DNA of 50,171 nucleotides from Myxococcales bacterium (GTDB lineage Bacteria; Myxococcota_A; Polyangia; Polyangiales; Polyangiaceae), in contig JANXLV010000011.1 in NCBI GenBank assembly GCA_025355005.1, positions 1-50,171 of the forward strand, in the 5' to 3' direction. Shown piece by piece: positions 702 through 28,313 of this stretch. The translations under genes and the position numbers were made by a program. The first letter of the stretch is position 1, and each line of letters begins with the position of its first letter. Below the pieces are notes generated by a model, which was not told the DNA's origin, did not search any database, and saw nothing but the letters and a program-made list of their open reading frames with translations.

Positions 702-1079
702 GCTGGTACGGCTGAGCTCCGCTGAGAGTTGCCCGGGAGCTGGCCGGCGTGGAGATGTAGTCAGTATGGCTACATTTCCACGCAATGGCCCCGGGCTTCT
801 CAGGATCCGTGGGCCTTCGGAGGGCGTAGCCCCCTGGTGGTGGGGGGCGAGACCCGCATGGACCAGAGGGATCCACGCGATACCTCAATGCGACGCCAGC
901 GCTCGCCCGAGGAAATCGGGACCTCGGGTTGGGCTGGAAGTGGTTCCATCCAAGGGATCAGGCAGGATCCACCGAGGGGTGTCGCGTGCCGGTATCACCA
1001 GGGAAAATTCAATGATTACGGATAAAGACACCCGGGCGCATCCTGTGCATGCCTTTCACCCCTTGGGAGAATTTGCCTG

Positions 1080-2333
1080 ATGAAAACCTCGCGAAATGTG
1101 CGCTCCATCTTGGTCTTCTCCACCATCCTGACCGGTGTAGTAGGGGCCTTTGTCGCCTGCGGCGATGGTGGGGGCGATGGGAACTTCAACGGGTATGATC
1201 CCAACCATCCCCCTGGTGGCGGAGAGGGCGGAACAGCTGGCGGCGAGGGGGGCGGGCCCGGAACGGGCGGCGTTGACCCTGCCGAAGCGCTCTATCGCCT
1301 CTTGGAGAAGGATCTTGTTACGAAATGTGGCGGTCCCGGTGGCGGTTGCCACGTGAGCGCGACCTCGTTCTCGACCGCTCCCAAGTTCCTTGCGGCGCCC
1401 GACTCCTACAAGTCAATCAAGGCCTTTACGGGGATCGTCGTGAAGGACGTTTTCACGAGCGCTATCATCACGAAAGGCGTTCACGAGGGCGGCAGCATCT
1501 ACGACGACGGCAGCGACGCCGGGACCTCTCTGGGCAAGCGCGTGGAGGCGTGGCTTTACCAGGAATCCGCCGAGCTCCAGGCCATCAAGCGCCCCACGAC
1601 GGACCCCTTCGCGGTCACCATCGGCGCCGATAATGATGTGGACTTGAGCAAGCTTGCGACCGGCGTGACCGGCGTTCACCTGAAGTTCAAGGCGCAGCTG
1701 GTCGGTACGACCCTCGAGCTCACGAATGTCTCGCTCACGACAGCGGCGGGCTCTGGCGTCCACCTTCAGCACCCGATCTTCTACCGAGTGCCTGCAAAGA
1801 AGGCGAATCCTGCGGATCCCGACAACCAGGACCCGCAGGATACTTTCTCGAATACGGATGTGACCGTGTCCGGCGGCGCCACCACGCCACTGCCGGTTCC
1901 CTTTGCGATCTTCAGCGGTTTCGACCCCTGGATGCCGACGGACAAGCTCCGTATCGAGGCCTACAAGCTCGAAGCGGGCATCGTGAAGGAAGCAGCCGTC
2001 GCTGCAATGTGCAGCAATCCCACGAACTTCCAGAACATGGTCGCCCCGTCGTTGACCGGCGCGGGCAACAGCGCACCTCTCAACTGCTTGAATTGCCACA
2101 ACGCCGGCGGCAGCGGCAACGGCGCGCTCAATCTCTCGGGCCTCGGAAATACGAAGGACTACCCCGGTGCTTGCGCGGCCGTTCTGAACAAGATCGACAA
2201 GACCACGCCCATGAACAGCCGGATCATCCAGAAGCTCGATGGAACGATGGGCCACGCTGGTGGCGCCGTTACCAACAAGGCTGGCTGGCAGACCGACTGG
2301 AAGGGCTTCATCATGGGCGGTACCATTTTCTAG
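1080..2333 (+). CDS. Secreted lipoprotein with CXXCH (CLNCH) and CX6CH motifs; possible N-terminal half of a DUF1592/DUF1595-type PSCyt-like protein
   Basis: ATG preceded by GGGAGA. Signal peptide plus lipobox (FVAC-G). Heme-binding-type motif CLNCHN and a second C(x6)CH (KCGGPGGGCH). Co-directional and tightly spaced with the next three genes. Confidence 0.7.
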   Translation: MKTSRNVRSILVFSTILTGVVGAFVACGDGGGDGNFNGYDPNHPPGGGEGGTAGGEGGGPGTGGVDPAEALYRLLEKDLVTKCGGPGGGCHVSATSFSTAPKFLAAPDSYKSIKAFTGIVVKDVFTSAIITKGVHEGGSIYDDGSDAGTSLGKRVEAWLYQESAELQAIKRPTTDPFAVTIGADNDVDLSKLATGVTGVHLKFKAQLVGTTLELTNVSLTTAAGSGVHLQHPIFYRVPAKKANPADPDNQDPQDTFSNTDVTVSGGATTPLPVPFAIFSGFDPWMPTDKLRIEAYKLEAGIVKEAAVAAMCSNPTNFQNMVAPSLTGAGNSAPLNCLNCHNAGGSGNGALNLSGLGNTKDYPGACAAVLNKIDKTTPMNSRIIQKLDGTMGHAGGAVTNKAGWQTDWKGFIMGGTIF

Positions 2334-2438
2334 TCAGACTCTAATCGCAGCCCTGCTCCAAAGATGGAGCGGTAGTTGCTTTATGTTCAACCACGCAGAC
2401 AGCATGTTGCTGGCCGCAGATGGAAAGGTAGGGAGACG

Positions 2439-3698
2439 ATGCGACGAGGCTCATGGCAGCAAGGCCGGAACGGCGCACTCGGCATCGCATTCGCGCTCGG
2501 CTTGGCCGCGTGCGGCGGTGGCGACAGCTCGGACCAGCTCAATAACGGGACGGGTGCAACCGACCCCAACGCGCCCGGCTCCGTCAATCCGAGCCCTGGG
2601 GGCTCAACCCCTGGCGGTGGTACCGGTGGTGGCGCAACGCCGACCCCGACCCCCGTCCTCGACACCCGCGTGGTCGACTACGGCGAGGCGCTCCGAATCG
2701 CGAGCCTCAAGCTGACCGGCGACCTTCCGACGCTCGACCAGATCAATGAGATCGGTTCGGCGGCGGATGCGAAGACGGCGAAGGCGGCGTACGAGAAGGA
2801 TGTCGACGCGATGATCGCTGACAAGCGATTCACCGCGATGATGATTCAGTGGTGGCGTGACACGCTCAAGACCGGTGGGCCTCCCCCCGCGATGGGCATG
2901 CCGAGCTTCGACACGGCGGCGACATTCGCTGCAGAGGTCGTCATCAACGACCGTCCGTATTCGGACCTCTTCACGGCCGCGACCAACACGTGCCCGACCT
3001 ATACGGCGGCCACGAACGCCTTCGCGGATGCAGCCTGCACGGGCACGCAGCCGACGGCCGGTCTCCTCTCGGACCCGGGCATCCAGGCCCAGTACTTCTC
3101 CAACATGGCGATGCGCCGAACGCGCTTCATCCAGGAGACGTTCGTCTGCTCCAAGATGCCGGCGGAGTTCTCGAGCACGCCGAAGGCGATGGGCGCCGGT
3201 TCCTATACCAGCCCCTGGAACTTCAACAGCATCACGGGCGGCACCACGGCGAAGATCAACTTCCTCGACACGTCCGCTGTCATCTGCGCGAACTGCCACA
3301 CGACCATGAACCACATGGCTCCGCTGCTTGGTCACTTCGACGGCAAGGGTGTGTACGACGGCACCAAGTTCGCCGTCCTCGTCCCCGTCCCCGGAAACCC
3401 CGCCGCGCAGCTTCAGGATTGGCTCCCCGCCTCCGAAGGTTTCGCATGGCGTAACGGAGTCACCGTCACGGACATCCCGAGCCTTGGCGCTGCCATCGCG
3501 AAGGATCCGGTCGTCGCCACCTGCGCGGTCAACCGCGTGTGGAACTGGGCGATGTCTCGCGGCGATGTCGTGAACGATCTGGCTACGGTGCCTCTCACCG
3601 TTACCCAGCAGTACGTTGCGGACTTCAACAAGAACGGTCAGAAGCTCAAGGCCACCATCGCGGCGGTCTACAAGAGCGATGACTTCGTGAAGTTCTAA
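2439..3698 (+). CDS. Secreted lipoprotein with CXXCH (CANCH); DUF1588/DUF1585-like
   Basis: Internal ATG at codon 22 of ORF 2376..3698, preceded by GGGAGA. Signal peptide with lipobox (LAAC-GG). Motif CANCHTTMNHMAPLLGHFDGKG resembles the C-terminal CXXCH block of planctomycete-type DUF1588 proteins. Confidence 0.7.
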   Translation: MRRGSWQQGRNGALGIAFALGLAACGGGDSSDQLNNGTGATDPNAPGSVNPSPGGSTPGGGTGGGATPTPTPVLDTRVVDYGEALRIASLKLTGDLPTLDQINEIGSAADAKTAKAAYEKDVDAMIADKRFTAMMIQWWRDTLKTGGPPPAMGMPSFDTAATFAAEVVINDRPYSDLFTAATNTCPTYTAATNAFADAACTGTQPTAGLLSDPGIQAQYFSNMAMRRTRFIQETFVCSKMPAEFSSTPKAMGAGSYTSPWNFNSITGGTTAKINFLDTSAVICANCHTTMNHMAPLLGHFDGKGVYDGTKFAVLVPVPGNPAAQLQDWLPASEGFAWRNGVTVTDIPSLGAAIAKDPVVATCAVNRVWNWAMSRGDVVNDLATVPLTVTQQYVADFNKNGQKLKATIAAVYKSDDFVKF

Positions 3699-3724
3699 CC
3701 AGGGAAGGGAGAAGAGGAAAAATC

Positions 3725-4444
3725 ATGAAAAAACTTGCTCTCACCCTGATCAGCTCGGCGCTCCTAGTGCTCGCCGGCTGCGACGGAACCAACGACTCAC
3801 TCAGCAATGGCGGCGGTGCAGAATCCGTCGCCACCAACACGGACCAAGCCGGCGGCGGCGGTCCCAACGGCGAGAACCACAGCCAGGACCCGAACGGTGC
3901 GGACCCTACCGCTCCCTTCGCGGCCCCGGACCCTGCTCAGAAGCGGGTGGATGACGCGACCTCGGGCTCGCCCGAGACCATCGCTCGCCTCCACTCCTGC
4001 GGCAAGGTCACCGTGCAGTCCCTTTCGTCGATCCTCGCTACGCGCGGTGTCAACGTGAACGGCGGCGCGGGCTCGGCAGGTGGCATCTACAAGGCGGGTC
4101 TCGCGACCCTCGGCCAGGCGAACTACGCCAGCCGCGTTCCGGAGGCTTCGTTCGCGACTGCTTCTGGTATGACCAAGCAGATGGACATCTTCGCTGCTGC
4201 ATCGACCGAAGTCTCCAATGCGGCCTGGGCTCCGACGGGTTGCACGTCGGGCGGTATGCCGGTGAAGCTGTTCGATGCTTCGGGCGCCTTCACGAAAGAC
4301 GGCATCTCGTGCCTTCTCGGTAAGCCGGCGCGCCAAGAGCACGTCGACCTCGCGAACGCCGCCGTCACTCAGGCATCCACCCCCGCGATTGGCAAGAACA
4401 TCGCGATTTCCGCGCTCCTTTCGGCTGCGCACACCTGCGAATAA
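3725..4444 (+). CDS. Lipoprotein of unknown function
   Basis: Strong RBS (GGAGAAGAGGA). Signal peptide with lipobox LAGC-DG. In the operon between the DUF1588-like and DUF1552-like genes. Confidence 0.65.
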   Translation: MKKLALTLISSALLVLAGCDGTNDSLSNGGGAESVATNTDQAGGGGPNGENHSQDPNGADPTAPFAAPDPAQKRVDDATSGSPETIARLHSCGKVTVQSLSSILATRGVNVNGGAGSAGGIYKAGLATLGQANYASRVPEASFATASGMTKQMDIFAAASTEVSNAAWAPTGCTSGGMPVKLFDASGAFTKDGISCLLGKPARQEHVDLANAAVTQASTPAIGKNIAISALLSAAHTCE

Positions 4445-4456
4445 GGAGTCACGACC

Positions 4457-5851
4457 ATGGGCATCGACGATCGTTTGAAAGACCTTCGAGGCACGGGCCG
4501 CCGCGACTTCATGAAGTGGAGCGCGACCCTGGCCGCCGTGCTCGGTCTCGAGCGTGCTCGCTTCCTCAATGTCATGAATGACATGGGCGGCAGCGCACTC
4601 GCGGACAACACCTCCTGCACCAAGAGCTTGAGGTCGTTCCACCTGGTCGCCGGCAACGGTGGCTTCGCGTGGTTCAACCTTCTGTTCCCGCAGAACGTCA
4701 TCGCCAAGGGCACGGACCCGAACTACTCGTTCCACGCGCTTGGTAAGGCCACGAAGTCCACGCTGACGGACAACGAGCTCTACTACGCACCGGAGAGCCC
4801 GTTCCAGAAGCTCGGCAAGAAGTTCCAGGTCACGGCGTACATGGCCGGCACCAACGAGACGCATACGTCGACGCCCGCGTCGGCCGCTACGCCCTCGGGC
4901 ACCGCGAGCATGCTCGCAGGTATCGCCGCCATCCAGCAGTCGGACCCGACGCTTCTCCCCGTCATCGCGATCAACCCGTTCACGTTCGGCGCAGCTCCTG
5001 GAGCTCCGGCGACCGCGGCGGTCGGAAACGCGGCGGGCCTCGTCGACCTCTTCAACAGTGCTGCGTCCAAGACGCTGCTCGCGGTGCCCGGCGATGCCGC
5101 GCTCCACGAGGCCTACTACAAGGCTTTCCTCGGCCTCAACCGCGCCGCCGGTCGCTCGACCGTCGCGAAGGGCTACGAGACCGGCAAGGTCGCAGCGAAC
5201 CTCCTCGGAAAGAACCTTTCCGATGCGCTTCGTCCGACGACCGCTGACGACGCTGCCTACGGCATCGTTGCCGGCACGCCGACGAACGTGCTCGAGATCG
5301 CACACTCGATCATCACGGGCATCAAGGCGTTCAAGCTGGGCTTGACCTCCTCGATTATCATCCCCGCTATGCGCGACGACCCGCACGGAGCGTTCGCTGG
5401 TGGTGATGCGATGCCGACCGCCATGGCCGCGCGCCTCGGGAAGATCTTCGACGCGATGATGGCAGATGCATCCGCGTCCCCCGATCCGAGCTGCTCGTCC
5501 AAGTCGCTCGCCGACAACATCATGTTCACCATCCACGGTGACACTCCGAAGACGCCGCTCAGCCGTAACGGCTGGGGCGACGGTACGCCGAAGAACTCGA
5601 ACTGGCTGTACGTCATGGGCAACGGCTACCTGAAGACCGGCTGGTTCGGCGGCGTCAACGCCGACCAAACCACCGACGGCTTCGACCCTGCAACGGGTAA
5701 CACCGTTCCCGGCCAGGCCAGCTCTGTGACTGCGGCGAACGCAGCGACCGCGGCACTCTACGCGGCAGCAAAGGGCGACTCCCGCCGCGTCCAGGACTTC
5801 TCGCGCGCCGTAATCGACGGCCTCGTGAATCCGCTCGCATCGGTGCAGTGA
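4457..5851 (+). CDS. TAT-signal secreted protein, DUF1552-like (usual partner of DUF1588/DUF1592 proteins)
   Basis: RBS AAGGAG 8 nt upstream. Twin-arginine motif GRRDFMKWSATLAAVLG at the N-terminus. 464 aa, the typical size of DUF1552. Adjacent to DUF1588-like genes as in planctomycete/verrucomicrobial loci. Confidence 0.75.
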   Translation: MGIDDRLKDLRGTGRRDFMKWSATLAAVLGLERARFLNVMNDMGGSALADNTSCTKSLRSFHLVAGNGGFAWFNLLFPQNVIAKGTDPNYSFHALGKATKSTLTDNELYYAPESPFQKLGKKFQVTAYMAGTNETHTSTPASAATPSGTASMLAGIAAIQQSDPTLLPVIAINPFTFGAAPGAPATAAVGNAAGLVDLFNSAASKTLLAVPGDAALHEAYYKAFLGLNRAAGRSTVAKGYETGKVAANLLGKNLSDALRPTTADDAAYGIVAGTPTNVLEIAHSIITGIKAFKLGLTSSIIIPAMRDDPHGAFAGGDAMPTAMAARLGKIFDAMMADASASPDPSCSSKSLADNIMFTIHGDTPKTPLSRNGWGDGTPKNSNWLYVMGNGYLKTGWFGGVNADQTTDGFDPATGNTVPGQASSVTAANAATAALYAAAKGDSRRVQDFSRAVIDGLVNPLASVQ

Positions 5852-5855
5852 CGGC

Positions 5856-5884
5856 CAGTGACGATACCGCAGTGACGATACCGC
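5856..5884. repeat. Tandem direct repeat (c)agtgacgataccgc x2, plus a partial third copy overlapping the upstream stop codon
   Basis: Read directly from the sequence in the convergent intergenic region 5852..6075. Confidence 0.6.
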
Positions 5885-5976
5885 CTGGCCACTGAGCGCT
5901 TCGCGCTGGTGGTCAGATGGGAGAGGGACCGACCCCCAGGGAGCTCACGCTCACTGGGGGTTCGCGTTTAAGCGGC

Positions 5977-6006
5977 GTCAACGTCAACATCAACGTCAAC
6001 GTCAAC
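5977..6006. repeat. Hexanucleotide tandem repeat (gtcaac)x5, one copy atcaac
   Basis: gtcaacgtcaacatcaacgtcaacgtcaac in the convergent intergenic region. Confidence 0.7.
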
Positions 6007-6075
6007 GAGCATCGGCAACGGCTCCCGGCAGGTCGAGATGCGCCGCCGTCTATGCGTGTGTGCTCGCGCCCTGGG

Positions 6076-6630
6076 TCAGGGTTGGGTCTTGGCTTTGTCG
6101 CAGAAGGACTTGTCGTTGGTGCCCAGGGCGACGGTCGGATCTTGCGGGAGGCGGAGCCACGCGGTGATGCAGCGGTAGGGCGCGCTCTCTTTTGCGAAGA
6201 GGGCGCCGCCCTTGTGTCGCTCGAGGTTCATCGCCTTGCGGAGGAAGAGCAGGATGTCGGCGTTCTGCCCGTTCTGCGCCATCACGCGGTTGAACGTCTC
6301 GGGCTCGACGGAGATGAGGGCGAAGTAGTTCGCGTTGATCTCTTCTTGCGTCGTCTGCTGGATGCCCGGGATCAGGCCTGCTTCCTGGCTGTAGAGCCGG
6401 AGGCCGCGGAAGCCGTACACGCGGAAGCCGCGGCCGGGCTCACCATGGCAGTCGAGCGTGCCGCACTGCTTCTCGATGTAGGGGTCGACCGAGTCACGGA
6501 ACGCCGGGTAATTCGGGCCGATCAGCGCGGTGAATCGCTTGTCGTCGGGGACCGATGCGCACGACACCGCGGCCGTTGCGCTGGAGAGCGCGCCGAGCCC
6601 GACGGCGAGCGTGAACATGCCCATGAGCAT
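6076..6630 (-). CDS. Lipoprotein with CX4CH motif (QCGTLDCHG), unknown function; paralogous to domains in the genes at 1080 and 10369
   Basis: Start moved to internal ATG (MLMGMFTLAVGLGALSSATAAVSCAS) by codon arithmetic; the N-terminal extension of the ORF is Arg/Pro-rich junk. Signal peptide plus lipobox. Confidence 0.6.
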   Translation of the reverse strand: MLMGMFTLAVGLGALSSATAAVSCASVPDDKRFTALIGPNYPAFRDSVDPYIEKQCGTLDCHGEPGRGFRVYGFRGLRLYSQEAGLIPGIQQTTQEEINANYFALISVEPETFNRVMAQNGQNADILLFLRKAMNLERHKGGALFAKESAPYRCITAWLRLPQDPTVALGTNDKSFCDKAKTQP

Positions 6631-6680
6631 CTTCGTCTTGATGGTCCTGCCGGACTTGCCGGGATCGCTGGAGGTGTTCA

Positions 6681-7349
6681 CTAGAAAAGATCCTCCGGGC
6701 ACACGAGGGGTGGGTCGGGCTCGACGGCGGGTGGGCACTGCACCGGCGAGTTTGGCGGGTTCTGGTTCACAGCCACGTGGCCTGGCGAGTCGAAGAACGA
6801 CGGATCCTTGTGGCAGTTCGCGCACGATGGCTCACGCCCCACGTGCCCGACCATCGCGACGACGGGCTGGTTGCCAGTGCCAGAGGTCTTCTGCACGCTC
6901 ACGAGGAAGGGGAATTTGAGGCCTTTCGCGCCGAGCCGGTCGGGCGTCGCGCGGAAGTTACCCATGCAGTTGGTGACGAAGCAGAGGTTTGCGTTATCGG
7001 CGGTGAGGATGCGCACGAACGCCTGGTCCACCGGTACCGGCACCTTCGGGTTCGCCGGGTCGTACTTCTGATAGAAGACGGTGCCTGCGATCGCGAACAC
7101 GTTCTTCGCGGGACCCTCGCCGCCGTGACAGACGGTGCACGGCTGCCCGCCGCGGTGATACTGGCCCGCGGGAATGTTCGGGTCCTCGCCGCCGAGCGCC
7201 TTGACCTGGCCGTCGTGTACCGGGTCGAGCGAGCAGCTGGAAGCAAACGAGGCGACGATGGCGAGCGCGGCCATCGAGAGACTGGCCTGCACCAGGCGCT
7301 CGTTTTGGGGCATCGCGGAGTGGGCTTTGGGTTCGGTGTTGCTGCGCAT
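6681..7349 (-). CDS. Diheme c-type cytochrome lipoprotein (two CXXCH)
   Basis: CTVCHGG and CANCHKD motifs. Signal peptide with lipobox (FASSC-S). GGAG RBS before ATG 7349; alternative ATG at 7313. The start abuts the stop of the upstream 768-aa gene. Confidence 0.7.
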   Translation of the reverse strand: MRSNTEPKAHSAMPQNERLVQASLSMAALAIVASFASSCSLDPVHDGQVKALGGEDPNIPAGQYHRGGQPCTVCHGGEGPAKNVFAIAGTVFYQKYDPANPKVPVPVDQAFVRILTADNANLCFVTNCMGNFRATPDRLGAKGLKFPFLVSVQKTSGTGNQPVVAMVGHVGREPSCANCHKDPSFFDSPGHVAVNQNPPNSPVQCPPAVEPDPPLVCPEDLF

Positions 7350-7351
7350 GA

Positions 7352-9658
7352 CTAGAACTCCACGTCGAACGCTACGGTCCCGTACACACCAGTACGCGTG
7401 GTGACGAAAAGAGATTTCAAGAAGCGCGTGTACATGACGTCGCCCGCGAGATTGAGGCCGTACTGCACCTCGCCCTCCGGGTTGCCGAGCGCGATGCGTG
7501 CGCCGCCGCCGCCGGTGACCGTGATGAGCGGCGCGAGCTCGCGGTCGCCGGAGCGGTACGTCGGCAGGAGGAGCGTGCCGCCCTGATCCACGAAGCCGCT
7601 GTACGCGAGCTGGTAGAAATTAGTGCCTGTTTGACCGTGAAAACGCAGGTGCGGCCACACGCGAAGGTGCTTGGAGAGGTCGACCATGTAGCGCGCGTCC
7701 GTGGACGACGCCTTGGTCTGCCAGCTGTCGAAGTAGATGCGCTCTTCGATGCGGAACGTGGAGCTGCCCAACCGCTTGTTGTAGCGGCCGCCGACGGCGA
7801 AGCGATCGCGCTCCGTGGGCAGCTGCTCGAGCGGGCGCGGGGGCAGGCGGACGCGATTCACCAGGTCGACCGTGGCGCCGGTGGGCACGAACGGCGCGAC
7901 GCCTTGCGGATCGAAGATGGGGACGTAGCGATAGGGCTTCGACTGATCGCCGCGCTCGAACTGCGCGGTCCCTCCCACCAGAAGGATCGACGTGGGCGAG
8001 AGCACGAACGTCGTGCTCGCCTCGATCTCATGCGTGGTGAGGACGCCCTTGTGATCAGGGTCGATGTCACCGAGCCAGTTACCCGCGAACAGACCACTCG
8101 AGCCCGGGCCAGCGGGACCGCGGCCGATCTTGTCGTAGCTGAACGAATACGAGAGACGTGGCGTGCTGAGCTTGTCGTTCACGTCCGCCGTGACCGCGAG
8201 GCCGACGGTGGTCGACAGGTAGTCGGGCTCGCTCGAGACGTTGAAGTTCGCCTGCGCACCGTAGAGCCCAGGCTTGTAGCCGCCCGTGATTCCGCCTGCG
8301 TGGCGAGCCTCGTGGAACGGCGGGGATGCCTCCGACACGAGGTCGGGCGAGGCCGCGCTGACGACGTCCAGGATGTAGTGGCCGCCCACGTTCCAGCCCG
8401 ACGTTGGCGAGATGACCGCTGCGTTGATGCCGGGCGTGACGACGTTGACGTGGTTTGTGTCGGAGTAGGCGCTGAAGTCCGCGCCGACCTTGATGACGAG
8501 GTTCTTGCGATTCTGGGGGAGGCACTTCTGCACCTCCTCCTGGTTTTTCGCCTGGAGCATGCACTGGATCTGCGGGCCCGTGATGATCTTGGAGCTCTGC
8601 GACGGCTTCAGCGTGAGGCGGACCGTGATGAGGTCCTTCTCCTTTACCTCGAGCTCTTCCTCGTACGTGGCGGGGAAGCCGTTGACCGTGCCTTCGGCGA
8701 GGACGGTGTGCTTGCCGGGATCGATCGAGAACTTCTTGGTGAGCGCCTCGGTCGGGACCTGGCGGTCGTCGAACTTGACGGACAGGTCCGTGACGCCAGC
8801 GGGGGGCGCGAACGTCACGTGAGGGATGCGCTCGATGAGCTCCTTCACGCGGTTGCGCGACACCTTCATCACGCCCGCATCCTTCTTCGCGATGCCGACC
8901 TCAAGCGCCTTCTGCGCGTCACGGAGCGCGTCGACGAGCTTGTTTGCGCGCGACTCGCACGACGCGAGGTGGAGGCGCGTGCGGGGCTGCTCCTCGGCCT
9001 TGAGTGATGCTTTGTCCTTCTCGATGCACTCGTCCAGCTTGCCGTCCTGATCGGCCTTGAGGCCTTCGAGGGCGAGCTTGAATGCGTCGACGCTGGTCCA
9101 GCCAGGCGGAGCCTTGCCTCCGGGGTTCTCCTCCGGCGGCGGGTCTCCACCACCACCTCCGCCAGCGCCGCCCGCGGTCGAAGCGGCGCCGGACACCGCG
9201 GCCTTCACGTCGGCGAACTGCTGCTTGATGTTGGGAGTGGCGCCGCTCGACGGGAGCTTTGCGTCCGCGTCAGCCTTGATCGCCGTCTCGAAGTTGGTCT
9301 TCGCTTCGTCCGCGTTGCCGAACTGCGACGCGACCATGCCGAGCGCGATGTAGATCTGCGCCTTCGTGGGGGCGGAGCAGCCCTTCTTCAAACAGCCAGA
9401 AAGAAGCTCGTTCAGCTTGGTCTTGGCTGGGCCGAGGTTCGCCGGGTACTCCTCGGTCATGATCTGCTGGAGCTGATCGGACGTCGCGTCGGCCATCGCC
9501 ACACGCGGAGCAAACGCGACCACGCTCGCTACGAGGACGCACAGCGCGAAGAGCGCAAGCCGAGCCGAGCCGACTCTCGCGCTGCGAGGGGTGGCTGCTC
9601 GACGCGAACGTCGATCACGAGACAAAGGTGCCCTATGGGCACGGGGCGTCCGATTCAC
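7352..9658 (-). CDS. Large outer-membrane protein: signal peptide, TPR-like N-terminal region, C-terminal beta-barrel ending in F (DUF3570-like)
   Basis: 768 aa. Arg-rich n-region followed by a hydrophobic signal. The C-terminal half has alternating amphipathic strands and the terminal residues ...VAFDVEF, typical of OM beta-barrels. The exact start is uncertain (GTG 9658, or an in-frame TTG downstream). Confidence 0.7.
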   Translation of the reverse strand: MNRTPRAHRAPLSRDRRSRRAATPRSARVGSARLALFALCVLVASVVAFAPRVAMADATSDQLQQIMTEEYPANLGPAKTKLNELLSGCLKKGCSAPTKAQIYIALGMVASQFGNADEAKTNFETAIKADADAKLPSSGATPNIKQQFADVKAAVSGAASTAGGAGGGGGGDPPPEENPGGKAPPGWTSVDAFKLALEGLKADQDGKLDECIEKDKASLKAEEQPRTRLHLASCESRANKLVDALRDAQKALEVGIAKKDAGVMKVSRNRVKELIERIPHVTFAPPAGVTDLSVKFDDRQVPTEALTKKFSIDPGKHTVLAEGTVNGFPATYEEELEVKEKDLITVRLTLKPSQSSKIITGPQIQCMLQAKNQEEVQKCLPQNRKNLVIKVGADFSAYSDTNHVNVVTPGINAAVISPTSGWNVGGHYILDVVSAASPDLVSEASPPFHEARHAGGITGGYKPGLYGAQANFNVSSEPDYLSTTVGLAVTADVNDKLSTPRLSYSFSYDKIGRGPAGPGSSGLFAGNWLGDIDPDHKGVLTTHEIEASTTFVLSPTSILLVGGTAQFERGDQSKPYRYVPIFDPQGVAPFVPTGATVDLVNRVRLPPRPLEQLPTERDRFAVGGRYNKRLGSSTFRIEERIYFDSWQTKASSTDARYMVDLSKHLRVWPHLRFHGQTGTNFYQLAYSGFVDQGGTLLLPTYRSGDRELAPLITVTGGGGARIALGNPEGEVQYGLNLAGDVMYTRFLKSLFVTTRTGVYGTVAFDVEF

Positions 9659-9764
9659 GCGTGTAACGTACCTTGGTTGCGTGGGTTTTACGTTTGGATT
9701 TTATGGCGAGGGGGCGGGGTTCACCCACCTGAAGTGCTTCTCGCTTGCTGACTCGGCGGAATGA

Positions 9765-9800
9765 CCTGAATCGCCTGAATCGCCTGAATCGCCTGAATAC
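9765..9800. repeat. 9-bp tandem repeat cctgaatcg x3, plus a fourth copy cctgaatac
   Basis: Lies between the stop of the small lipoprotein gene and the start region of the 768-aa gene on the minus strand. Confidence 0.7.
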
Positions 9801-9806
9801 GCCAGC

Positions 9807-10028
9807 TCAGTTACAGCCGCAGCCGCCGCCGCCGCCGCCCACGCCGCCAGCAGCCCCTTCGGAGACCGCTCGCACGTGCTCGTCCAGGCCGATCGAGGGA
9901 TCGTCCGTGCTCATCGTTGGGTGAGCGAGGATGCCGCGCTCGTACGGTGCCACGTGCGTGCACGCCGTCCCAAGCGCTGCAATGAGAAGCGCTCCTGTGA
10001 GCGTGATGAGCTTCCTTGCTTTGGTCAT
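9807..10028 (-). CDS. Small lipoprotein (73 aa) with C-terminal GGVGGGGGGCGCN tail; DUF4266-like
   Basis: Only the last 73 codons of ORF 9807..10754 are credible. ATG is preceded by AAGGTGAT. Lipobox LGTAC-T. The mature peptide is ~50 aa and ends in a poly-Gly run followed by CGCN. Immediately upstream of, and co-directional with, the beta-barrel gene. Confidence 0.65.
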   Translation of the reverse strand: MTKARKLITLTGALLIAALGTACTHVAPYERGILAHPTMSTDDPSIGLDEHVRAVSEGAAGGVGGGGGGCGCN

Positions 10029-10368: not shown

Positions 10369-10959
10369 ATGAAACGAATTGCCGCACTCGTGTTTTTCGG
10401 CGCCTCGGCGCTGGCCTTCATCGTCCACTGCAGCGAGCCCGTGCACGAGTGCGGAAAGGACGTCAACTGCGGCGACCCTGGAGACCTGTCTGGCAAGACC
10501 GCGCCAGGCCCGCCCAACGCGCAGGGCGCTGACTCCAACAACAACAACACGACGGCAGGCGCCGACGCGAGCATCGCGAACCTCTGCGCGCCGCTCGCCG
10601 GCGACGGTGGATGCAGCATCAGCTTCACCAAGGACATCCTCGGGAAGAAGCTCGGCGCTGCGGGAACGTGGGGATGCGCCGCGTCCGGCTGCCACGATCC
10701 GCAAGGCGGCAGCGAGCCGAAGATCAACGTCGACGATCCCTCGTTCACGTACAAGCACCTTTACACGAACGGCGCGGGCGGCCTGCCGTACGTCAATCCG
10801 TGCTCCACCGATCCGGCGAAGAGCGCCTTCGTGGGCAACCTGTCGAACCCGTCGACTGCGGGCAATCACATGCCGCTCGGCAACACGGCGCTGCCCGCCC
10901 AAGCCGACATCGACACGATCATCAAGCCGTGGATCCAGTGCGGCTCGCCGCTGAACTGA
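10369..10959 (+). CDS. Secreted Cys-rich protein with CX4CH motif (GCAASGCH), unknown function
   Basis: ATG preceded by GAGGGG. N-terminal signal peptide. Ten cysteines. Its C-terminal region resembles the CXnCH domains of the genes at 1080 and 6076. Confidence 0.65.
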   Translation: MKRIAALVFFGASALAFIVHCSEPVHECGKDVNCGDPGDLSGKTAPGPPNAQGADSNNNNTTAGADASIANLCAPLAGDGGCSISFTKDILGKKLGAAGTWGCAASGCHDPQGGSEPKINVDDPSFTYKHLYTNGAGGLPYVNPCSTDPAKSAFVGNLSNPSTAGNHMPLGNTALPAQADIDTIIKPWIQCGSPLN

Positions 10960-11037: not shown

Positions 11038-11823
11038 GTGGAAAGACTCCTCGCACGCCTCGAACGCAAGGTCGGCAAGTACGCCATCCCGAACCTGACG
11101 AACTACATCGTCGGCGGCATGGCGATGGTGTTCGTCCTCGGCTTCGTACGGCACGAGTTCATCGCGTGGCTCACGCTCGACATGGACGCCGTACGCGAGG
11201 GCCAGGTCTGGCGTCTGGTCTCCTATCTCTTCATCCCGCGCAGCATGTCGCCGTGGTGGGGAGTGATGTCGCTCTTCTTCACGCTCTTCGTGGGCCGGAG
11301 CCTGGAGAGCGAATGGGGCGCCTTCAAGTTCAACGTCTACTATCTCGTCGGGATGATCGGGACCACGGTCGCCGCGGTGATCGTGGGCCATGGGGTCGGC
11401 AACGAGTGGCTGAATCTGTCGCTGCTCTTTGCGCTGGCCACCGTGTTCCCCGATCACGAGATCATGATGCTGATCCTGCCCGTGAAGGTGAAATGGCTCG
11501 GCCTCCTGTCGCTCGCGTTCTTGCTGTACGCAGCGGCAACGGGTGACTGGGCCACGCGTGCGGCGATAGCCTGTGCGCTGTCGAACTACCTCGTGTTCTT
11601 CGGCGGTCACTGGCGTGCGCGCCTTCGCGATCGCAATGTTGCCGTACGCCAGGGAGCCCGTCGCGCAGGCTGGAAGGAGAGCGCGCCACCAGCAAAAGCC
11701 GAGGGCAAATCCTGCGCGATCTGCGGAGCACGGCAGGACGACGGCGCCGACATCCGCGTGTGCTCGTGCGAGAAGTGCGGGCGTCCGCGCTCGCTGTGTC
11801 TCGAGCACGCCAGGAACCACTGA
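11038..11823 (+). CDS. Rhomboid-like polytopic membrane protein (canonical catalytic Ser/His apparently absent) with C-terminal CxxC...CxxC zinc ribbon
   Basis: GTG start. Motif QVWRLVSYLF.. and TM spacing resemble the rhomboid core. GMIGTT occupies the place of GxSG. C-terminus CAICGARQDDGADIRVCSCEKCG. Stop is 6 nt before the HK start. Confidence 0.55.
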   Translation: MERLLARLERKVGKYAIPNLTNYIVGGMAMVFVLGFVRHEFIAWLTLDMDAVREGQVWRLVSYLFIPRSMSPWWGVMSLFFTLFVGRSLESEWGAFKFNVYYLVGMIGTTVAAVIVGHGVGNEWLNLSLLFALATVFPDHEIMMLILPVKVKWLGLLSLAFLLYAAATGDWATRAAIACALSNYLVFFGGHWRARLRDRNVAVRQGARRAGWKESAPPAKAEGKSCAICGARQDDGADIRVCSCEKCGRPRSLCLEHARNH

Positions 11824-11829
11824 GCGCGC

Positions 11830-12882
11830 ATGACGACGGAGACATCGCGCACGAAGAGCGAGTCACCGCCCACGGCTCGCGTGCGGCCCACGCGCAACTG
11901 GCAGCGCCTCGGCTACCGGCGCATCGTGCAGCTGCTCGTCTATCTGGTCATCATTCCGACGGTGCTGCTGCTCGCGATCGGCATCATCACGTTGTTCCTC
12001 GAAGGCCGCATCAACCTGGTCTTCGGGCTCTTGACGATCAGCTTCGTGGCGGTCGTGGTCACGGGCGTCGTGCTCGTGATCGTGTTCGTCAATCGCGAGG
12101 CGAACCTCTCCGAGCTGCAGGCCGACTTCGTGTCCAAGGTGAGCCATGAGCTCCGCACGCCGCTCACCGCCATCCGACTCTTTGCGGAGACCATGGAGCG
12201 GAACAAGGGCGATCAGGAGACGATCGATCAATGCTTGCAGCTCCTCGTGGGCGAGTCCGAGCGGCTCACGCGCCTGATCGAGCGCCTCCTCGACTGGGGA
12301 CGCATGGAGGCCGGTCGCAAGATCTACGACCTGCGCACCGAGAACGTGCAGGACATCGTGGACGACGTGGTGCGCGCCTACGCTCCGCACAAATACGCCG
12401 ACGACGCGCTCACGTTCGAGACCCAGGTCGCGCCGCACCTGCCATGCGTGCGCGTGGATCGCACCGCCGTGGTCGATGCGCTCGTCAACTTGCTCTCCAA
12501 CGCGCGCAAATACGGCGGCACCCCGCCAGTGGTCACGCTCGATGTGAAGCAGAATCCAGACGGCGACGTGGCGTTCGAGGTCACGGACAACGGCGCTGGC
12601 ATCGACCTCGCCGAGCAGCGCCGCATCTTCCAAAAATTCTACCGCATCGACGATCGCCTCTCGCGCACGCGCGAGGGAAGCGGACTGGGCCTCGCGATCG
12701 TGAAGCACATCGCGCGCGCGCACCACGCAGAGGTCGGTGTCCGCAGCGAAAAAGGCAAAGGCTCAACCTTCAGCTTGATCCTGGAGAGGTCCATCAGTAG
12801 TCAGGACACTGACGCGCGGGGAAAGGGCGCGCCTGCACCCCCCGATGACGCAGACGAACGCGAAGACAAAGCCAAAGCATAG
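11830..12882 (+). CDS. Sensor histidine kinase (two closely spaced TM helices, no periplasmic domain)
   Basis: H-box ELRTPLTAIRLF. N, G1 and G2 boxes (DNGAGIDL, GSGLGLAIV). Two TM helices separated by a very short loop. Confidence 0.9.
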   Translation: MTTETSRTKSESPPTARVRPTRNWQRLGYRRIVQLLVYLVIIPTVLLLAIGIITLFLEGRINLVFGLLTISFVAVVVTGVVLVIVFVNREANLSELQADFVSKVSHELRTPLTAIRLFAETMERNKGDQETIDQCLQLLVGESERLTRLIERLLDWGRMEAGRKIYDLRTENVQDIVDDVVRAYAPHKYADDALTFETQVAPHLPCVRVDRTAVVDALVNLLSNARKYGGTPPVVTLDVKQNPDGDVAFEVTDNGAGIDLAEQRRIFQKFYRIDDRLSRTREGSGLGLAIVKHIARAHHAEVGVRSEKGKGSTFSLILERSISSQDTDARGKGAPAPPDDADEREDKAKA

Positions 12883-13552
12883 AGTGCTCGTCGTCGAGGA
12901 CGACAGCAGCATCTCGCTTGGCCTCCGCATCAACCTCACGAGCGAAGGCTACGACGTGCGCATCGCCGACGATGGAGAGCGCGGGCTTGAGCTCGCGCGC
13001 AGCGAGCGCCCCGACCTGGTCATCCTGGACATCATGCTCCCGAAGATGAACGGGCTCGAGGTGCTGGACACGCTCCGCAAGGAGGGCTTCACCATGCCCA
13101 TCATCGTGCTGTCCGCGCGCACGGGAGAGATGGACAAGGTCACGGGCCTCGAGCTCGGTGCAGAGGACTACGTCGCGAAGCCGTTCAGCCTGGCGGAGCT
13201 GCTCGCGCGGGTGAAGGCAGCGCTTCGTCGCAGCGCGCAGCCGTCGCGTGCAAGCGCCGTCACCTTTGGCGACGTCCTCGTGGATGTGGATGCGCGCACC
13301 GTGCGCCGTGCGGGTGCAGAGGTGGAGATGACCGCCACCGAGTTCGACGTCCTCGTGTTCCTGCTCTCGCAGCGCGGCCGTGTGCTGTCGCGCGACGCGA
13401 TCTTCTCGCACGTGTGGGGACCGAACCATCACGGCACGCCGCGCACGATCGACAACTTCATGCAGCAGCTCCGCGCGAAGCTGGAGATCGACCCGACCGC
13501 GCCGAAGCATTTCCAGACCGTGCGCGGCGTGGGCTACAGATTCGACGGATAG
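12845..13552 (+). CDS. OmpR/PhoB-family response regulator
   Basis: Receiver motifs (VLVVEDD, DLVILDIMLP, KPF). Winged-helix output domain (TVRGVGYRF). Overlaps the HK end by 38 nt; alternative GTG start at 12884. Confidence 0.9.
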   Translation: MTQTNAKTKPKHRVLVVEDDSSISLGLRINLTSEGYDVRIADDGERGLELARSERPDLVILDIMLPKMNGLEVLDTLRKEGFTMPIIVLSARTGEMDKVTGLELGAEDYVAKPFSLAELLARVKAALRRSAQPSRASAVTFGDVLVDVDARTVRRAGAEVEMTATEFDVLVFLLSQRGRVLSRDAIFSHVWGPNHHGTPRTIDNFMQQLRAKLEIDPTAPKHFQTVRGVGYRFDG

Positions 13553-23995: not shown

Positions 23996-24125
23996 CCTTG
24001 ACCCGGCGTCGCCGTCTGCGCAGAAATGGAGCGCGCGACCGCTCCACTACGGAGCGCGCATGTCACCACAGTGGGTGAAAATAGGCCGAGTTCGCGTCGG
24101 CACGGCGCCTGCTCAGTGACGGCCC

Positions 24126-26183
24126 ATGAGCGAACGCGACGCACGTGAACGAGACATTCTGGTTGCACCCTCCGAGTACGCCTACGTCCAGGACCTGACG
24201 AAGGGGGACATTGTCCTCTACGTGGGTCCCACGAAGATCAGCCTCTCCAACACCGAGCGCATCGTGGAGCTGCGCGAGAACCGCTTCGTCCCCGTCCGCG
24301 CGGACGACCCGAGCTTCGGCGTGAGCCCGTTCGTGTCGGCCTCGTCCTCGCAGTACATCGTGCTCGAGAATCCCGTGCTGGAAGGAAAGGAGGCGCGCCC
24401 CATTCGCGGCGGCAACACGGCGGTGGACCTCGCCGTGGGTCGCAAGGTCGTCGTGGCCGGACCGACGATGTTCCCGCTGTGGCCCGGTCAGCGTGCGCGC
24501 GTGATCGACGCTCACCCGCTGCGCGAGGACGAGTACCTGATCGTGCGCTACTACGACCGCGTCCCCGAAGATCCGCATCCCATCGGCTCCGAGCTGGTCG
24601 TGCGCGGCGCGGACGTGTCGTTCTACGTACCGCGCACCGGGCTCGAGGTCGTCCCCGCGGAGGTCGTGCCCGGACGCTGGCGGTACGTGCGCAAGGCCAC
24701 GCGCTTCCCGAGGCCCGGGGGCTTGCACGTGCGCGTCACGAAGCAGCTCACCGCAGATGAATGGCACGCCCTTCCCGCGGGGACGTACGCGGCCGGCACG
24801 GACGTGTTCTTGGCCGATCGCGACGGCTACTTCTTCCCGGACGAGAACGTGGAGGTCATCGCTCTGGTGTTGCCCGTTCCGATCGCGGAGAAGGAAGGGC
24901 TCTACGTGCGTGATCGCCCCACGGGTCGCATCGCGACGATCATGGGCCCGGCGAACTACCTCTGCGATCCGACGCGTGAGGAGCTCGTGCCCCGCGTGCT
25001 GTCGCCGGAGCGCGTGAAGCTCTATGGCCTCGCCCATCACGACCCGATGCGTGCCGTCGCGGTGAACGTGCCGCCCGGCTTCGCGGTGCTTGTCACTGGG
25101 AAGACGAAGCGCGAGGTCGTGAAGGGACCGGAGACGCGCATCCTGGACTTCGACGAGGAGCTGACGGTGCAGCGTCTGTCAACGGGTCGCCCCAAATCGG
25201 ACGAGAGCACGCTCGAGACCTGCTTCTTGCAAGTGGAGAGCAACAAGGTGAGCGACACGCTCTCCGTGCGCACGCGCGATCACGTGGAGGTGCAGATCTC
25301 CGTGTCCTACCGTGTGTCGTTCGAAGGGCAGGACAGGCAGCGCTGGTTCCACGTGAAGGACTACGTCGGTCTCCTCTGTGATCACGCGGGCTCCATCCTG
25401 CGCGCCGCGTCGCGCACCACGAGCATCGAGCTGTTCCAGCGCGAGGCGACCGAGATGTTGCGTACCGCGATCCTGGGAGAGCGTCGCGACGTGGAGGGGG
25501 AGGGCGCGGGACCGCCGCGAAGGCCTGGGCGTGCGTTCACCGAGAACGGGATGTGGGTCTACGATCTGGAGGTTCTGGACGTGCGCATCCTGGACGCGGA
25601 CGTCAAGAAGCTGCTGGACGGCGCCCAGCGCGCGGCCATCGTGAGCGACGCGAAGCGGCGCGAGGAAGAGCGTCGCCTGTCCGAGGAGCGACTGCGCGCG
25701 GAGGTCGATCGCGAGGTGGGCGACGCGCAGATCCTGGCGCTGGCGAAGGCGCTGGAGGTGGAGGGCGCGCGTGCGGCGCTGGAGGAGCGTCGGGCTGCGT
25801 CGCTCGTTACGGTCGAGCGCGTCACGCGCGTGGGCGCGGCGGAGGCGGAGGCGCGCGCGCTTACCATCGAGCGCGACGCGGAGGCGCAGTCACTCGAGCG
25901 TCGCGCGGAGCTCGGTCGGAAGACGCTGGAGGCGCAAGTTGCGGCGTTCGAGAAGCAGATGGCTGCGCTGGCGCCGGAGCTCATCTCCACGCTCACCACG
26001 CTGGGCCATCAGAAGCTTGCCGCGGAGCTGTCCCTGAACGTGGGCCCGCTCGCGGTGCTGGGCGGCGGAAGCGTCACGGAGATCGTCGAGAAGCTCCTCG
26101 GCGCGCTCCCCGTGGGCGCAAAGAAGACGGTCGCGGACGTGCTCGTCCATCGCAACGGAGCGGCCATTCCAAAGTCCACCTGA
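24126..26183 (+). CDS. Major vault protein (MVP) homolog: MVP repeats, SPFH-like shoulder and coiled-coil cap helix
   Basis: N-terminus APSEYAYVQDLTKGDIVLYVGPTKISLSNTERIV parallels eukaryotic MVP ([35 protein letters not shown]). Shoulder motifs EGLYVRDRPTGRIATIMGP and LSTGRPK parallel EGIYVQDVKTGKVRAVIGS and LSAGRPK. Arg/Glu-rich coiled coil in the C-terminal third. 685 aa, so fewer repeats than the 9 in human MVP. Confidence 0.85.
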   Translation: MSERDARERDILVAPSEYAYVQDLTKGDIVLYVGPTKISLSNTERIVELRENRFVPVRADDPSFGVSPFVSASSSQYIVLENPVLEGKEARPIRGGNTAVDLAVGRKVVVAGPTMFPLWPGQRARVIDAHPLREDEYLIVRYYDRVPEDPHPIGSELVVRGADVSFYVPRTGLEVVPAEVVPGRWRYVRKATRFPRPGGLHVRVTKQLTADEWHALPAGTYAAGTDVFLADRDGYFFPDENVEVIALVLPVPIAEKEGLYVRDRPTGRIATIMGPANYLCDPTREELVPRVLSPERVKLYGLAHHDPMRAVAVNVPPGFAVLVTGKTKREVVKGPETRILDFDEELTVQRLSTGRPKSDESTLETCFLQVESNKVSDTLSVRTRDHVEVQISVSYRVSFEGQDRQRWFHVKDYVGLLCDHAGSILRAASRTTSIELFQREATEMLRTAILGERRDVEGEGAGPPRRPGRAFTENGMWVYDLEVLDVRILDADVKKLLDGAQRAAIVSDAKRREEERRLSEERLRAEVDREVGDAQILALAKALEVEGARAALEERRAASLVTVERVTRVGAAEAEARALTIERDAEAQSLERRAELGRKTLEAQVAAFEKQMAALAPELISTLTTLGHQKLAAELSLNVGPLAVLGGGSVTEIVEKLLGALPVGAKKTVADVLVHRNGAAIPKST

Positions 26184-27749: not shown

Positions 27750-28172
27750 TCAACGCGTGCCGGAGGCGCGGTTCAGCTTTGCCTGGCAGCTCGCGCAGAC
27801 GCCGTACATCTCGTGCTTGTGGCTGAGGAGGCGGAAGCCGTGCTGGTCCGCGACCTCCTCCTGGATGCGTTCGATGCGCGGCTCCTCGAACTCGATGATG
27901 CTCTGGCACTCGACGCAGATGAGGTGGTCGTGGTGCGACTCCTCGTCCGCGAGCTCGTAGCGCGTGAGGCCGTCGCCGAACCTGCGCTCGAACGCCACGC
28001 CGCACTCCGTGAGGAGCTTCAGCGTGCGATACACGGTGGCGTAGCCGACCTTCGGGTCCTCTGCGCGCACGTCAGCAAGCAGCTCCTCGATGCTGACGTG
28101 GTTCGCCGACTTGAAGAACGTCTCCACGATGAGCTTGCGCTGGTCCGTAGACCGCAGGCCCTTCTTCGCCAT
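27750..28172 (-). CDS. Fur-family transcriptional regulator
   Basis: Start moved to internal ATG (MAKKGLRSTDQRKLIVETF). Winged-helix N-terminus. HHDHLICVECQ and CASC metal-site motifs. Confidence 0.85.
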   Translation of the reverse strand: MAKKGLRSTDQRKLIVETFFKSANHVSIEELLADVRAEDPKVGYATVYRTLKLLTECGVAFERRFGDGLTRYELADEESHHDHLICVECQSIIEFEEPRIERIQEEVADQHGFRLLSHKHEMYGVCASCQAKLNRASGTR

Positions 28173-28313
28173 GTGGTTCGACAGTAGCGAGCGGAAGTGG
28201 GTGAGGCTCGCCGCGGTCGGCCTGTGATCGTGCTTGTTCTTCGCCTTCAAGACTACCCTCCCCCTTGCCTGAAAACGTCGCTTCGAACGGTCGCGGCGTC
28301 AAGGCGCAAATCC

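Follow-up and report, generated by a model that had tools for sequence, protein, structure and literature searches.

We analyzed a 50,171-bp contig of a Myxococcales bacterium (JANXLV010000011.1, ~66% GC, here referred to as the window). On its minus strand it carries a compact operon for a small DUF4266 lipoprotein, a DUF3570 protein and two lipoproteins with heme motifs, and a third heme-motif protein is encoded divergently. This module is real and widely conserved in myxobacteria. We consider it moderately likely that the locus encodes the extracytosolic redox system of DUF4266 and DUF3570 in a form that includes heme, as an outer-membrane-anchored thiol/flavin/heme relay. The earlier note on this DNA had left the flavin and thiol chemistry unconsidered.

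The minus-strand genes encode, in module order, the DUF4266 mini-lipoprotein (73 aa, 9807..10028), the DUF3570 protein (768 aa, 7352..9658), a diheme c-type cytochrome lipoprotein candidate (222 aa, 6681..7349, with CTVCH and CANCH) and a monoheme-type CX4CH lipoprotein (184 aa, 6076..6630, with CGTLDCH). Divergent to them is the gene of a class-I-like monoheme cytochrome c candidate of 196 aa (10369..10959, +, with CAASGCH). An open reading frame (ORF) check of the window found all five genes where the earlier note had placed them; the tight packing of the four minus-strand genes and the heme motifs assigned to the 222-aa and 184-aa proteins were confirmed as well. The junctions measure 148, 2 and 50 nt, the first value presupposing the GTG at 9658 as start of the DUF3570 gene. 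The ATG of the 222-aa gene is located 2 bases downstream of the DUF3570 stop codon, and the 184-aa gene begins 50 nt beyond the 222-aa gene.

Relatives were collected in two ways. A scan of species-representative genomes yielded 311 relatives, of which the best 80 loci were taken (genome counts are given over 84 loci). A metagenome scan seeded with five short DUF3570 relatives lacking tetratricopeptide repeats (TPR) yielded 80 high-GC loci. The ORFs of the fetched loci were searched with hidden Markov models for the module genes, and 163 fetched loci were included in the searches for accessory genes.

The earlier note had named a lack of conserved synteny in relatives beforehand as a ground for refutation; the synteny is very strongly conserved. 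The order DUF4266, DUF3570, diheme cytochrome c and CX4CH gene recurs in ~160 loci of the two collections, whose flanks are otherwise unrelated. The diheme gene was found in 81 and the CX4CH gene in 80 of the 84 genome loci, both immediately behind the barrel gene, and almost all of the missed genes were at contig ends, with the exception of locus L083. The best 80 of the 311 relatives were all Polyangiales or Labilithrix-like metagenome-assembled genomes (MAGs), several of them with two or three paralogous copies, and relatives with named records belonged to Polyangiales, Labilithrix-like organisms or Myxococcales. The same six genes are arranged alike around barrel orthologues of 59-60% identity that are encoded on a 9.9-Mb chromosome and in two Myxococcales MAGs.

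Three types of neighbourhood were found among the genome loci, with the DUF3570, diheme and CX4CH triad as their only common part. The type of the window comprises the divergent monoheme gene, a rhomboid-like gene and DUF4266. In the second type the monoheme gene is located upstream on the same strand and DUF4266 is absent, and the third type has unrelated flanks. Altogether, the 196-aa monoheme gene adjoins the module in 59/84 genome loci. An exhaustive search of the representatives with the barrel domain also gave many short DUF3570 relatives (380-430 aa) without TPR. In the metagenomic loci the order is again DUF4266, DUF3570, diheme and CX4CH gene (DUF4266 in 63, diheme gene in 66 and CX4CH gene in 56 of the 80 loci), and no neighbouring gene family was common to more than 9 of them. 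Since the core order is kept amid flanks that are not shared, the four-gene core is the conserved unit, to which the Labilithrix lineage has added the TPR domain, the divergent monoheme gene and the rhomboid-like gene.

The identity of the 768-aa protein, which had been described as DUF3570-like, was borne out by Pfam (PF12094, 69 bits vs. a cut-off of 25, aa 443-717). Its signal peptide aligns with those of the orthologues. The deposited gene model (P0001, 714 aa) starts at Met55 and is therefore without this signal peptide (9496..9658, -), which all orthologues possess; that start is probably mis-called. Usable starts of the barrel gene are only the GTG at 9658 or a TTG at 9625. In the AlphaFold2 (AF2) model (mean predicted local distance difference test, pLDDT, 67; barrel strands mostly 70-89) helical, TPR-like repeats (aa ~56-277) are followed by a small beta domain (aa 280-347) and by the DUF3570 barrel of 16-17 strands (aa ~388 to the C-terminal Phe 768, ending in DVEF). 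The structure table of the protein lists FhaC (17.5), PgaA (16.7), OprP (16.2), BcsC (15.8), MtrB (14.0) and TPR proteins (~14). The TPR matches were weak and below the Pfam cut-off; the domain is backed by the AF2 model and by precomputed Pfam lists of homologues. The model thus shows a putative periplasmic TPR domain joined to a predicted outer-membrane beta-barrel of roughly 16 strands, in line with the signal peptide, TPR region and Phe-terminated barrel of the earlier description.

The 73-aa protein matched DUF4266 (PF14086) with 57.3 bits vs. a cut-off of 27, so that the identity suggested from its -GCGCN tail was correct. Behind the lipobox Cys23 the mature peptide comprises ~51 aa and ends in GGVGGGGGGCGCN, i.e. 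in a poly-Gly tether of ~13 residues with CGC at its end (GCGCN). This C-terminus is present in 112/112 orthologues (49/49 from genome loci and 63/63 from metagenome loci), all of which also keep the lipobox Cys and a VAPYERGxLAHPxM core.

The spacer between the DUF4266 and DUF3570 genes contains, just 3' of the DUF4266 stop codon, the 9-mer tandem repeat that had been described within the 148-bp gap (GGCGATTCA x4.2, 9765..9803, Tandem Repeats Finder score 69). It was found neither in locus L004, whose barrel domain is 98% identical, nor in any other orthologous intergenic region. The repeat is idiosyncratic and without functional role, and owing to its lack of conservation it is probably a slippage product. 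A conserved intergenic block was not found in this spacer beyond close relatives, and no Rfam family matched in it. The repeat or spacer was accordingly rejected as a regulatory RNA or element, given the missing repeat in L004 and the negative Rfam result. At the same intergenic position, locus L011 carries a different tandem repeat (24-mer x6.2, 7815..8561), and repeats seem to expand readily in this spacer. The GTG at 9658 is preceded, at a distance of 6 nt, by a TACGTT hexamer (9659..9676, -), and motifs like TGTAC(C)GTTA/TGTATCGTA occur at the equivalent place in the distant orthologues L001, L002, L007, L008, L009, L036 and L038. The hexamer may be a -10 element, giving a leaderless transcript and an internal promoter between both genes. 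Furthermore, a perfect hairpin GTGCCCATAGGGCAC (9628..9642, -) is located inside codons 6-10 of the long DUF3570 ORF and is identical in the closest relative L004.

Each of the heme-motif proteins carries the signal peptide of an exported protein with a lipobox. The 222-aa protein, the largest cytochrome candidate of the module, has two CXXCH motifs (C71xxC74H75 and C176xxC179H180) behind the lipobox Cys39; the others have one heme motif each. Two CXXCH motifs were found in 79/85 homologues from genome loci and 59/67 from metagenome loci. In the alignment of this family the lipobox Cys39, His65, Cys128, Met166 and Cys217 are invariant, H65 and M166 being candidate axial ligands. No Pfam family matched the protein. 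The family profile matched cytochrome c555 weakly in the region of the second heme (E 3.5e-6, PDB), and in the AF2 model, of low confidence (pLDDT 61), the two heme motifs seem to flank a beta-sandwich core.

In the 184-aa protein the lipobox Cys24 is followed by C56-G-T-L-D-C61-H62 and an invariant E-R-H139-K-G-G. The CX4CH motif is present in 80/80 homologues from genome loci and 55/58 from metagenome loci, and neither Pfam nor NCBIfam contained a family matching the protein. The 196-aa family, a lipoprotein in most relatives, has a conserved Met-Pro and a C-terminal W..CG[AS]P. At one alignment position CX4CH is found in 45 of its orthologues and plain CXXCH in 8, and 3/16 members gave weak, sub-threshold Pfam matches to Cytochrome_CBB3 or Cytochrom_C. 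A further sub-threshold match among the module proteins was to Cytochrome_C7 (E 0.0045). Surveys of cytochromes count CX4CH among the heme-binding motifs (PMC10734462). Because of the exchange of both motifs at one position of the 196-aa family, together with its Met-Pro and the weak class I matches, there is good evidence that CX4CH would serve as a heme site in the module proteins. The 184-aa and 196-aa proteins are alike only around the heme motif (24 columns, probability 82%, hhalign). Thus the divergent CX4CH gene of the earlier note was found as described, whereas the relatedness claimed for it is confined to this short stretch.

All in all, the proteins with CXXCH or CX4CH qualify as conserved candidates for lipoprotein cytochromes, to which heme would be attached. 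They resemble class I c-type cytochromes and planctomycete-type PSCyt domains in the N-terminal helix followed by C-x(2 or 4)-C-H, in the distal Met-Pro of the 196-aa family, in the weak Cytochrome_CBB3/Cytochrom_C matches and in the similarity of the diheme profile to cytochrome c555. They differ in that no module protein reaches a Pfam gathering score for these families, in the fixed CX4CH of the 184-aa family with ERHKGG in place of Met-Pro, and in the modelled beta-sandwich core of the diheme protein. In Myxococcus xanthus, lipoprotein sorting follows a rule in which Lys at position +2 is a retention signal. Reading the sequences of the four small lipoproteins, we did not see this signal in any of them, and DUF4266 and the three heme lipoproteins are predicted to be anchored in the outer membrane.

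The DUF3570 protein of Chlorobium luteolum has been demonstrated experimentally to be flavinylated by its cognate ApbE at two [S/T]GA[S/T] motifs (Méheust 2021, eLife, PMC8238504); DUF2271 was the other ApbE substrate identified there. Recombinant DUF3570 was flavinylated although insoluble (PMC8238504), which is compatible with modification before membrane insertion. The DUF3570 protein of the window does not have two canonical motifs. Site 1 reads D431-V-V-S-A-A-S437-P-D, with Ala for Gly, and site 2 reads Q676-T-G-T-N680, without a hydroxyl acceptor. The form D-x-x-[ST]-A-A-S at site 1 is common to 84/84 loci from genomes and 78/81 from metagenomes, and nearly all of 150 representatives have it too. 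Here, the Asp, the Ala-Ala-Ser and the next Asp are invariant across sequences only 30-45% identical, and the consensus Gly is replaced in 162/165 sequences. Site 2 keeps the canonical form in no more than 14/84 genome loci; otherwise it varies, with Asn or Asp as acceptor in 44/84 genome loci and a highly variable acceptor in the metagenomic set. Replacement of Gly by Ala in the flavinylation motif reduces flavinylation only to ~50% according to a 2025 review of ApbE (PMC12052999).

Site 1 is located at the end of strand 3 of the modelled barrel and site 2 inside the loop 677-711. The barrel loops alternate between long (435-448, 513-539, 570-617 and 677-711) and short ones, with strand count and loop topology derived from secondary structure only. 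As a rule, the long loops of outer-membrane proteins are extracellular, and for this reason both sites would face the exterior or be folded into the barrel lumen.

Accessory genes were searched over every ORF of the fetched loci and the whole window by jackhmmer with E. coli ApbE (b2214), and for DsbD, TlpA-like redoxins and DUF2271 with locus-derived queries and confirmation by Pfam. Among the 163 loci, the module is adjoined by ApbE in 3 (L115, L148 and L151), by DsbD in 12, by a TlpA-like redoxin in 10 and by DUF2271 with the canonical D-V-I-[ST]-G-A-T in 8. All three ApbE genes stand beside a complete module plus DsbD, in L148 and L151 also with a TlpA-like redoxin. In these three loci [ST]AAS is the sole candidate site, the site-2 acceptor being Arg or Asp. 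The accessory genes found beside the core in scattered loci are precisely the ones known from the published flavinylation system. They thereby tie the module to that system and make flavinylation of Ser437 likely; since SAAS is the only candidate site where ApbE adjoins, Ser437 is probably still flavinylated.

The clusters around DUF3570 in the published system contain ApbE, a thioredoxin-like protein (PF13899), DUF4266 with its C-terminal CXC and often DsbD (PF02683), and the function of the system was called uncertain (PMC8238504). The neighbourhood of DUF4266 and DUF3570 was also mentioned in passing by Haft 2023. The module shares with the system of Méheust 2021 the DUF4266 with C-terminal CXC adjoining DUF3570, the flavinylation-type motif at its first site and, in a minority of related loci, the adjoining DsbD_TM+Thioredoxin_7, TlpA-like redoxin and ApbE. 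In contrast, the window has no ApbE, DsbD or thioredoxin near the module, the motif is S-A-A-S rather than [S/T]GA[S/T] with the second site lost, and an N-terminal TPR and beta domain have been added in this lineage. Moreover, two genes for cytochrome-type lipoproteins are a fixed feature downstream of the barrel gene, and there is a third, divergent one; that paper mentions none of them. Neither Méheust 2021 nor Haft 2023 nor the later literature searched mentions cytochromes in the DUF4266/DUF3570 context, and this cytochrome complement seems to be undescribed. The earlier statement that the combination was new therefore applies to the cytochromes, but not to the DUF4266/DUF3570 pair, which had already been published.

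The module had further been compared to porin-cytochrome conduits. This is a fair analogy, as MtrCAB, MtoAB/PioAB and Cyc2 likewise combine an outer-membrane barrel with lipoprotein or periplasmic c-type cytochromes in an operon. The size of the barrel resembles that of Cyc2-type porins. Membership in this group was not supported, however, because of too few hemes and no homology: the module has no sequence homology to any of these systems, and the comparison with the MtrB and MtrA families was negative. Instead of an 8-10-heme wire through a 26-strand barrel as in Mtr-type systems, 2+1+1 hemes would be located on separate small lipoproteins, and neither Mtr-type systems nor Cyc2 possess anything equivalent to the flavin and the CXC thiols. 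A single heme can suffice in Cyc2, which is a fused monoheme cytochrome-porin (PMC10734462).

Based on these data we propose the following scheme. The DUF3570 protein would form an outer-membrane barrel of ~16 strands, in this lineage with a periplasmic TPR scaffold, and DUF4266 would present a redox-active Cys-Gly-Cys on its flexible poly-Gly tail. Woycechowsky and Raines (2003) reportedly showed that CGC is redox-active and mimics protein disulfide isomerase. The D-x-x-S-A-A-S of the barrel probably receives flavin mononucleotide (FMN) through the action of an ApbE whose gene lies elsewhere in the genome. Dithiol input could pass from DsbD via a TlpA-like redoxin to the CGC tail. Flavins are the classical adaptors between two-electron dithiol chemistry and one-electron heme carriers, and FMN-Ser437 would convert the two-electron dithiol input into one-electron heme steps, or the reverse. 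The acceptor or donor served by the relay may be located at the outer membrane or farther outside. A chain from DsbD over the TlpA-like redoxin, CGC and FMN-Ser437 to the hemes, or its reverse, fits all parts; heme attachment, flavinylation of Ser437, formation of a physical complex, direction of electron flow and substrate are its inferred steps.

Electron transfer across the outer membrane by the module is possible. We regard it as unlikely, though conceivable, that the module is a minimal trans-outer-membrane electron conduit with three types of cofactors. In such a conduit FMN on Ser437 would be placed near the outer rim of the barrel or in its lumen, and the poly-Gly tail of DUF4266 in the inner leaflet would thread up the barrel, bringing the Cys-Gly-Cys disulfide to the flavin. 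Tail and flavin would together act as a split flavin-disulfide oxidoreductase inside a porin, and electrical contact between this centre and the periplasm would be provided by the three heme lipoproteins.

Several observations weigh against the proposed thiol/flavin/heme relay. The cytochrome candidates match no Pfam family above the cut-off, and both AF2 models are of modest confidence (pLDDT 67 for DUF3570, 61 for the diheme protein), with strand count and topology taken from secondary structure. ApbE, DsbD, a TlpA-like redoxin and an FMN-binding protein were not found in the 50-kb window (Pfam on large ORFs, jackhmmer for ApbE), and PF02424 (ApbE) had no match in any sizeable ORF. A hidden ApbE, DsbD or TlpA in the window was rejected on the basis of these searches, and the only thioredoxin there is a Trx-rhodanese protein 24 kb from the module. 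The flavin and thiol inputs would therefore have to be encoded elsewhere. Moreover, with Ala for Gly at site 1 and the acceptor gone at site 2 (Asn680), flavinylation may have been lost and replaced by heme. In that case DUF3570 of this clade would be unflavinylated, D-x-x-S-A-A-S would be purely structural and the cytochromes would do the job of FMN. ApbE is missing from 160/163 loci and from the window, and the near-universal loss of the consensus Gly and the decay of site 2 agree with such a replacement, as does the published cluster variability, which is consistent with flavin/cytochrome redundancy (PMC8238504). Yet the invariance of the site-1 residues in strongly diverged sequences, the three ApbE loci with a full cytochrome-containing module and SAAS as only candidate, and the half-maximal flavinylation tolerated with Ala in the motif argue for retention of the flavin. 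Intact DUF2271 substrates beside 8 modules also indicate that these organisms use ApbE. We therefore regard a replacement of flavin by heme as doubtful, although deserving of consideration.

The barrel might also be a solute or metal channel, with the cytochromes as periplasmic reductases or oxidases of its substrate, e.g. ferric iron, and no electrons crossing the membrane. In the published survey, a VIT1 iron transporter was found in 25 DUF3570 clusters and a function in iron assimilation was proposed (PMC8238504), and the window encodes a Fur-family regulator (27750..28298). This gene is, however, 18 kb away and outside the conserved synteny, and no transporter, TonB/ExbBD or iron-related gene recurs beside the module in ~160 loci, which leaves a channel quite unlikely. 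With regard to TPR-plus-barrel proteins of the PgaA/BcsC/PelB type, an exopolysaccharide or protein export porin with unrelated cytochrome passengers would be imaginable. But the barrel is a DUF3570, i.e. of another family, one with experimentally shown flavinylation (PMC8238504), and the TPR is dispensable, as the four-gene operon is unchanged in short forms without it. The surrounding genes point to redox chemistry and not to polysaccharide synthesis: no glycosyltransferase or synthase genes are adjacent, and polysaccharide synthase or modification genes were neither found in the window nor recurrent in the related loci. An exporter is thus very improbable. Equally remote is the explanation that the gene order reflects mere descent among close relatives and that the CXXCH motifs are chance or metal-binding sites. 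The recovered loci do appear to come from one phylum (names of Polyangiales, Labilithrix and Deltaproteobacteria, MYXO-CTERM tags), and all three small heme proteins stay below the Pfam gathering scores. The core order is nevertheless kept in paralogous copies within genomes, across loci without common flank genes and at barrel identities down to 31-35%, with module genes 2-50 nt apart. In addition, the motifs are invariant, CXXCH and CX4CH replace each other at one position and weak similarity to class I cytochromes is present.

In the vicinity of the module, the rhomboid-like gene encodes a membrane protein of 261 aa (11038..11823, +; Pfam Rhomboid E 7e-4, below the cut-off). It follows the monoheme gene in 35/84 genome loci, always in the neighbourhood type of the window, and was not found in the metagenomic short-form loci; its membership in the module is uncertain. 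The protein has a C-terminal Cys-rich, zinc-ribbon-like tail, and the catalytic serine of GxSG is apparently missing (G-V-G-N), which suggests a rhomboid pseudoprotease. A histidine kinase and an OmpR-type response regulator are encoded directly behind it (11830..13552, +), and in loci of other neighbourhood types (L045, L062, L065 and L069) the barrel gene has a related kinase as its immediate neighbour. The pair may regulate the module.

Convergent to the CX4CH gene is a set of four genes (1026..5851, +) for secreted products, namely a 435-aa CLNCH protein, a DUF1549/DUF1588-like protein (PSCyt2/PSCyt3), a 239-aa lipoprotein and a 464-aa protein with a twin-arginine translocation (TAT) signal. 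The four genes resemble a planctomycete-style combination of PSCyt and TAT proteins, here within a myxobacterium. As only 13 loci carry it, the set was rejected as a part of the module and treated as a neighbour. The convergent intergenic region downstream of the CX4CH gene contains a 14-mer x2.1 and a CGTCAA x5.3 repeat (5856..5884 and 5976..6007). Further away, a 687-aa protein (24120..26183, +) with MVP_shoulder (PF11978, 81 bits) and Vault_3 is homologous to the major vault protein of eukaryotes. In the metagenomic locus L057 (11583..13460, -) and at the DUF2271 genes of L104, L108 and L109, neighbouring secreted proteins end in Cys-containing MYXO-CTERM-like tags (GCGC/GCSA, then a hydrophobic stretch, then RRRR), which places these loci in Myxococcota.

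DUF3570/DUF4266 is a flavinylation-associated system whose function is still listed as uncertain. In a large myxobacterial clade, we find both proteins locked in an operon with three heme proteins, while ApbE, DsbD and TlpA occur only sporadically. The module offers this system a concrete chain of cofactors (dithiol, flavin and hemes), which would be placed at the outer membrane. It also suggests D-x-x-[S/T]-A-A-S as a natural variant of the ApbE target; if SAAS is indeed such a target, motif-based surveys of flavinylated proteins need to be widened. To our knowledge, no extracellular electron transfer system has been described in soil myxobacteria. Should electrons cross the outer membrane here, the module would represent a new class of porin-based conduit in these organisms.

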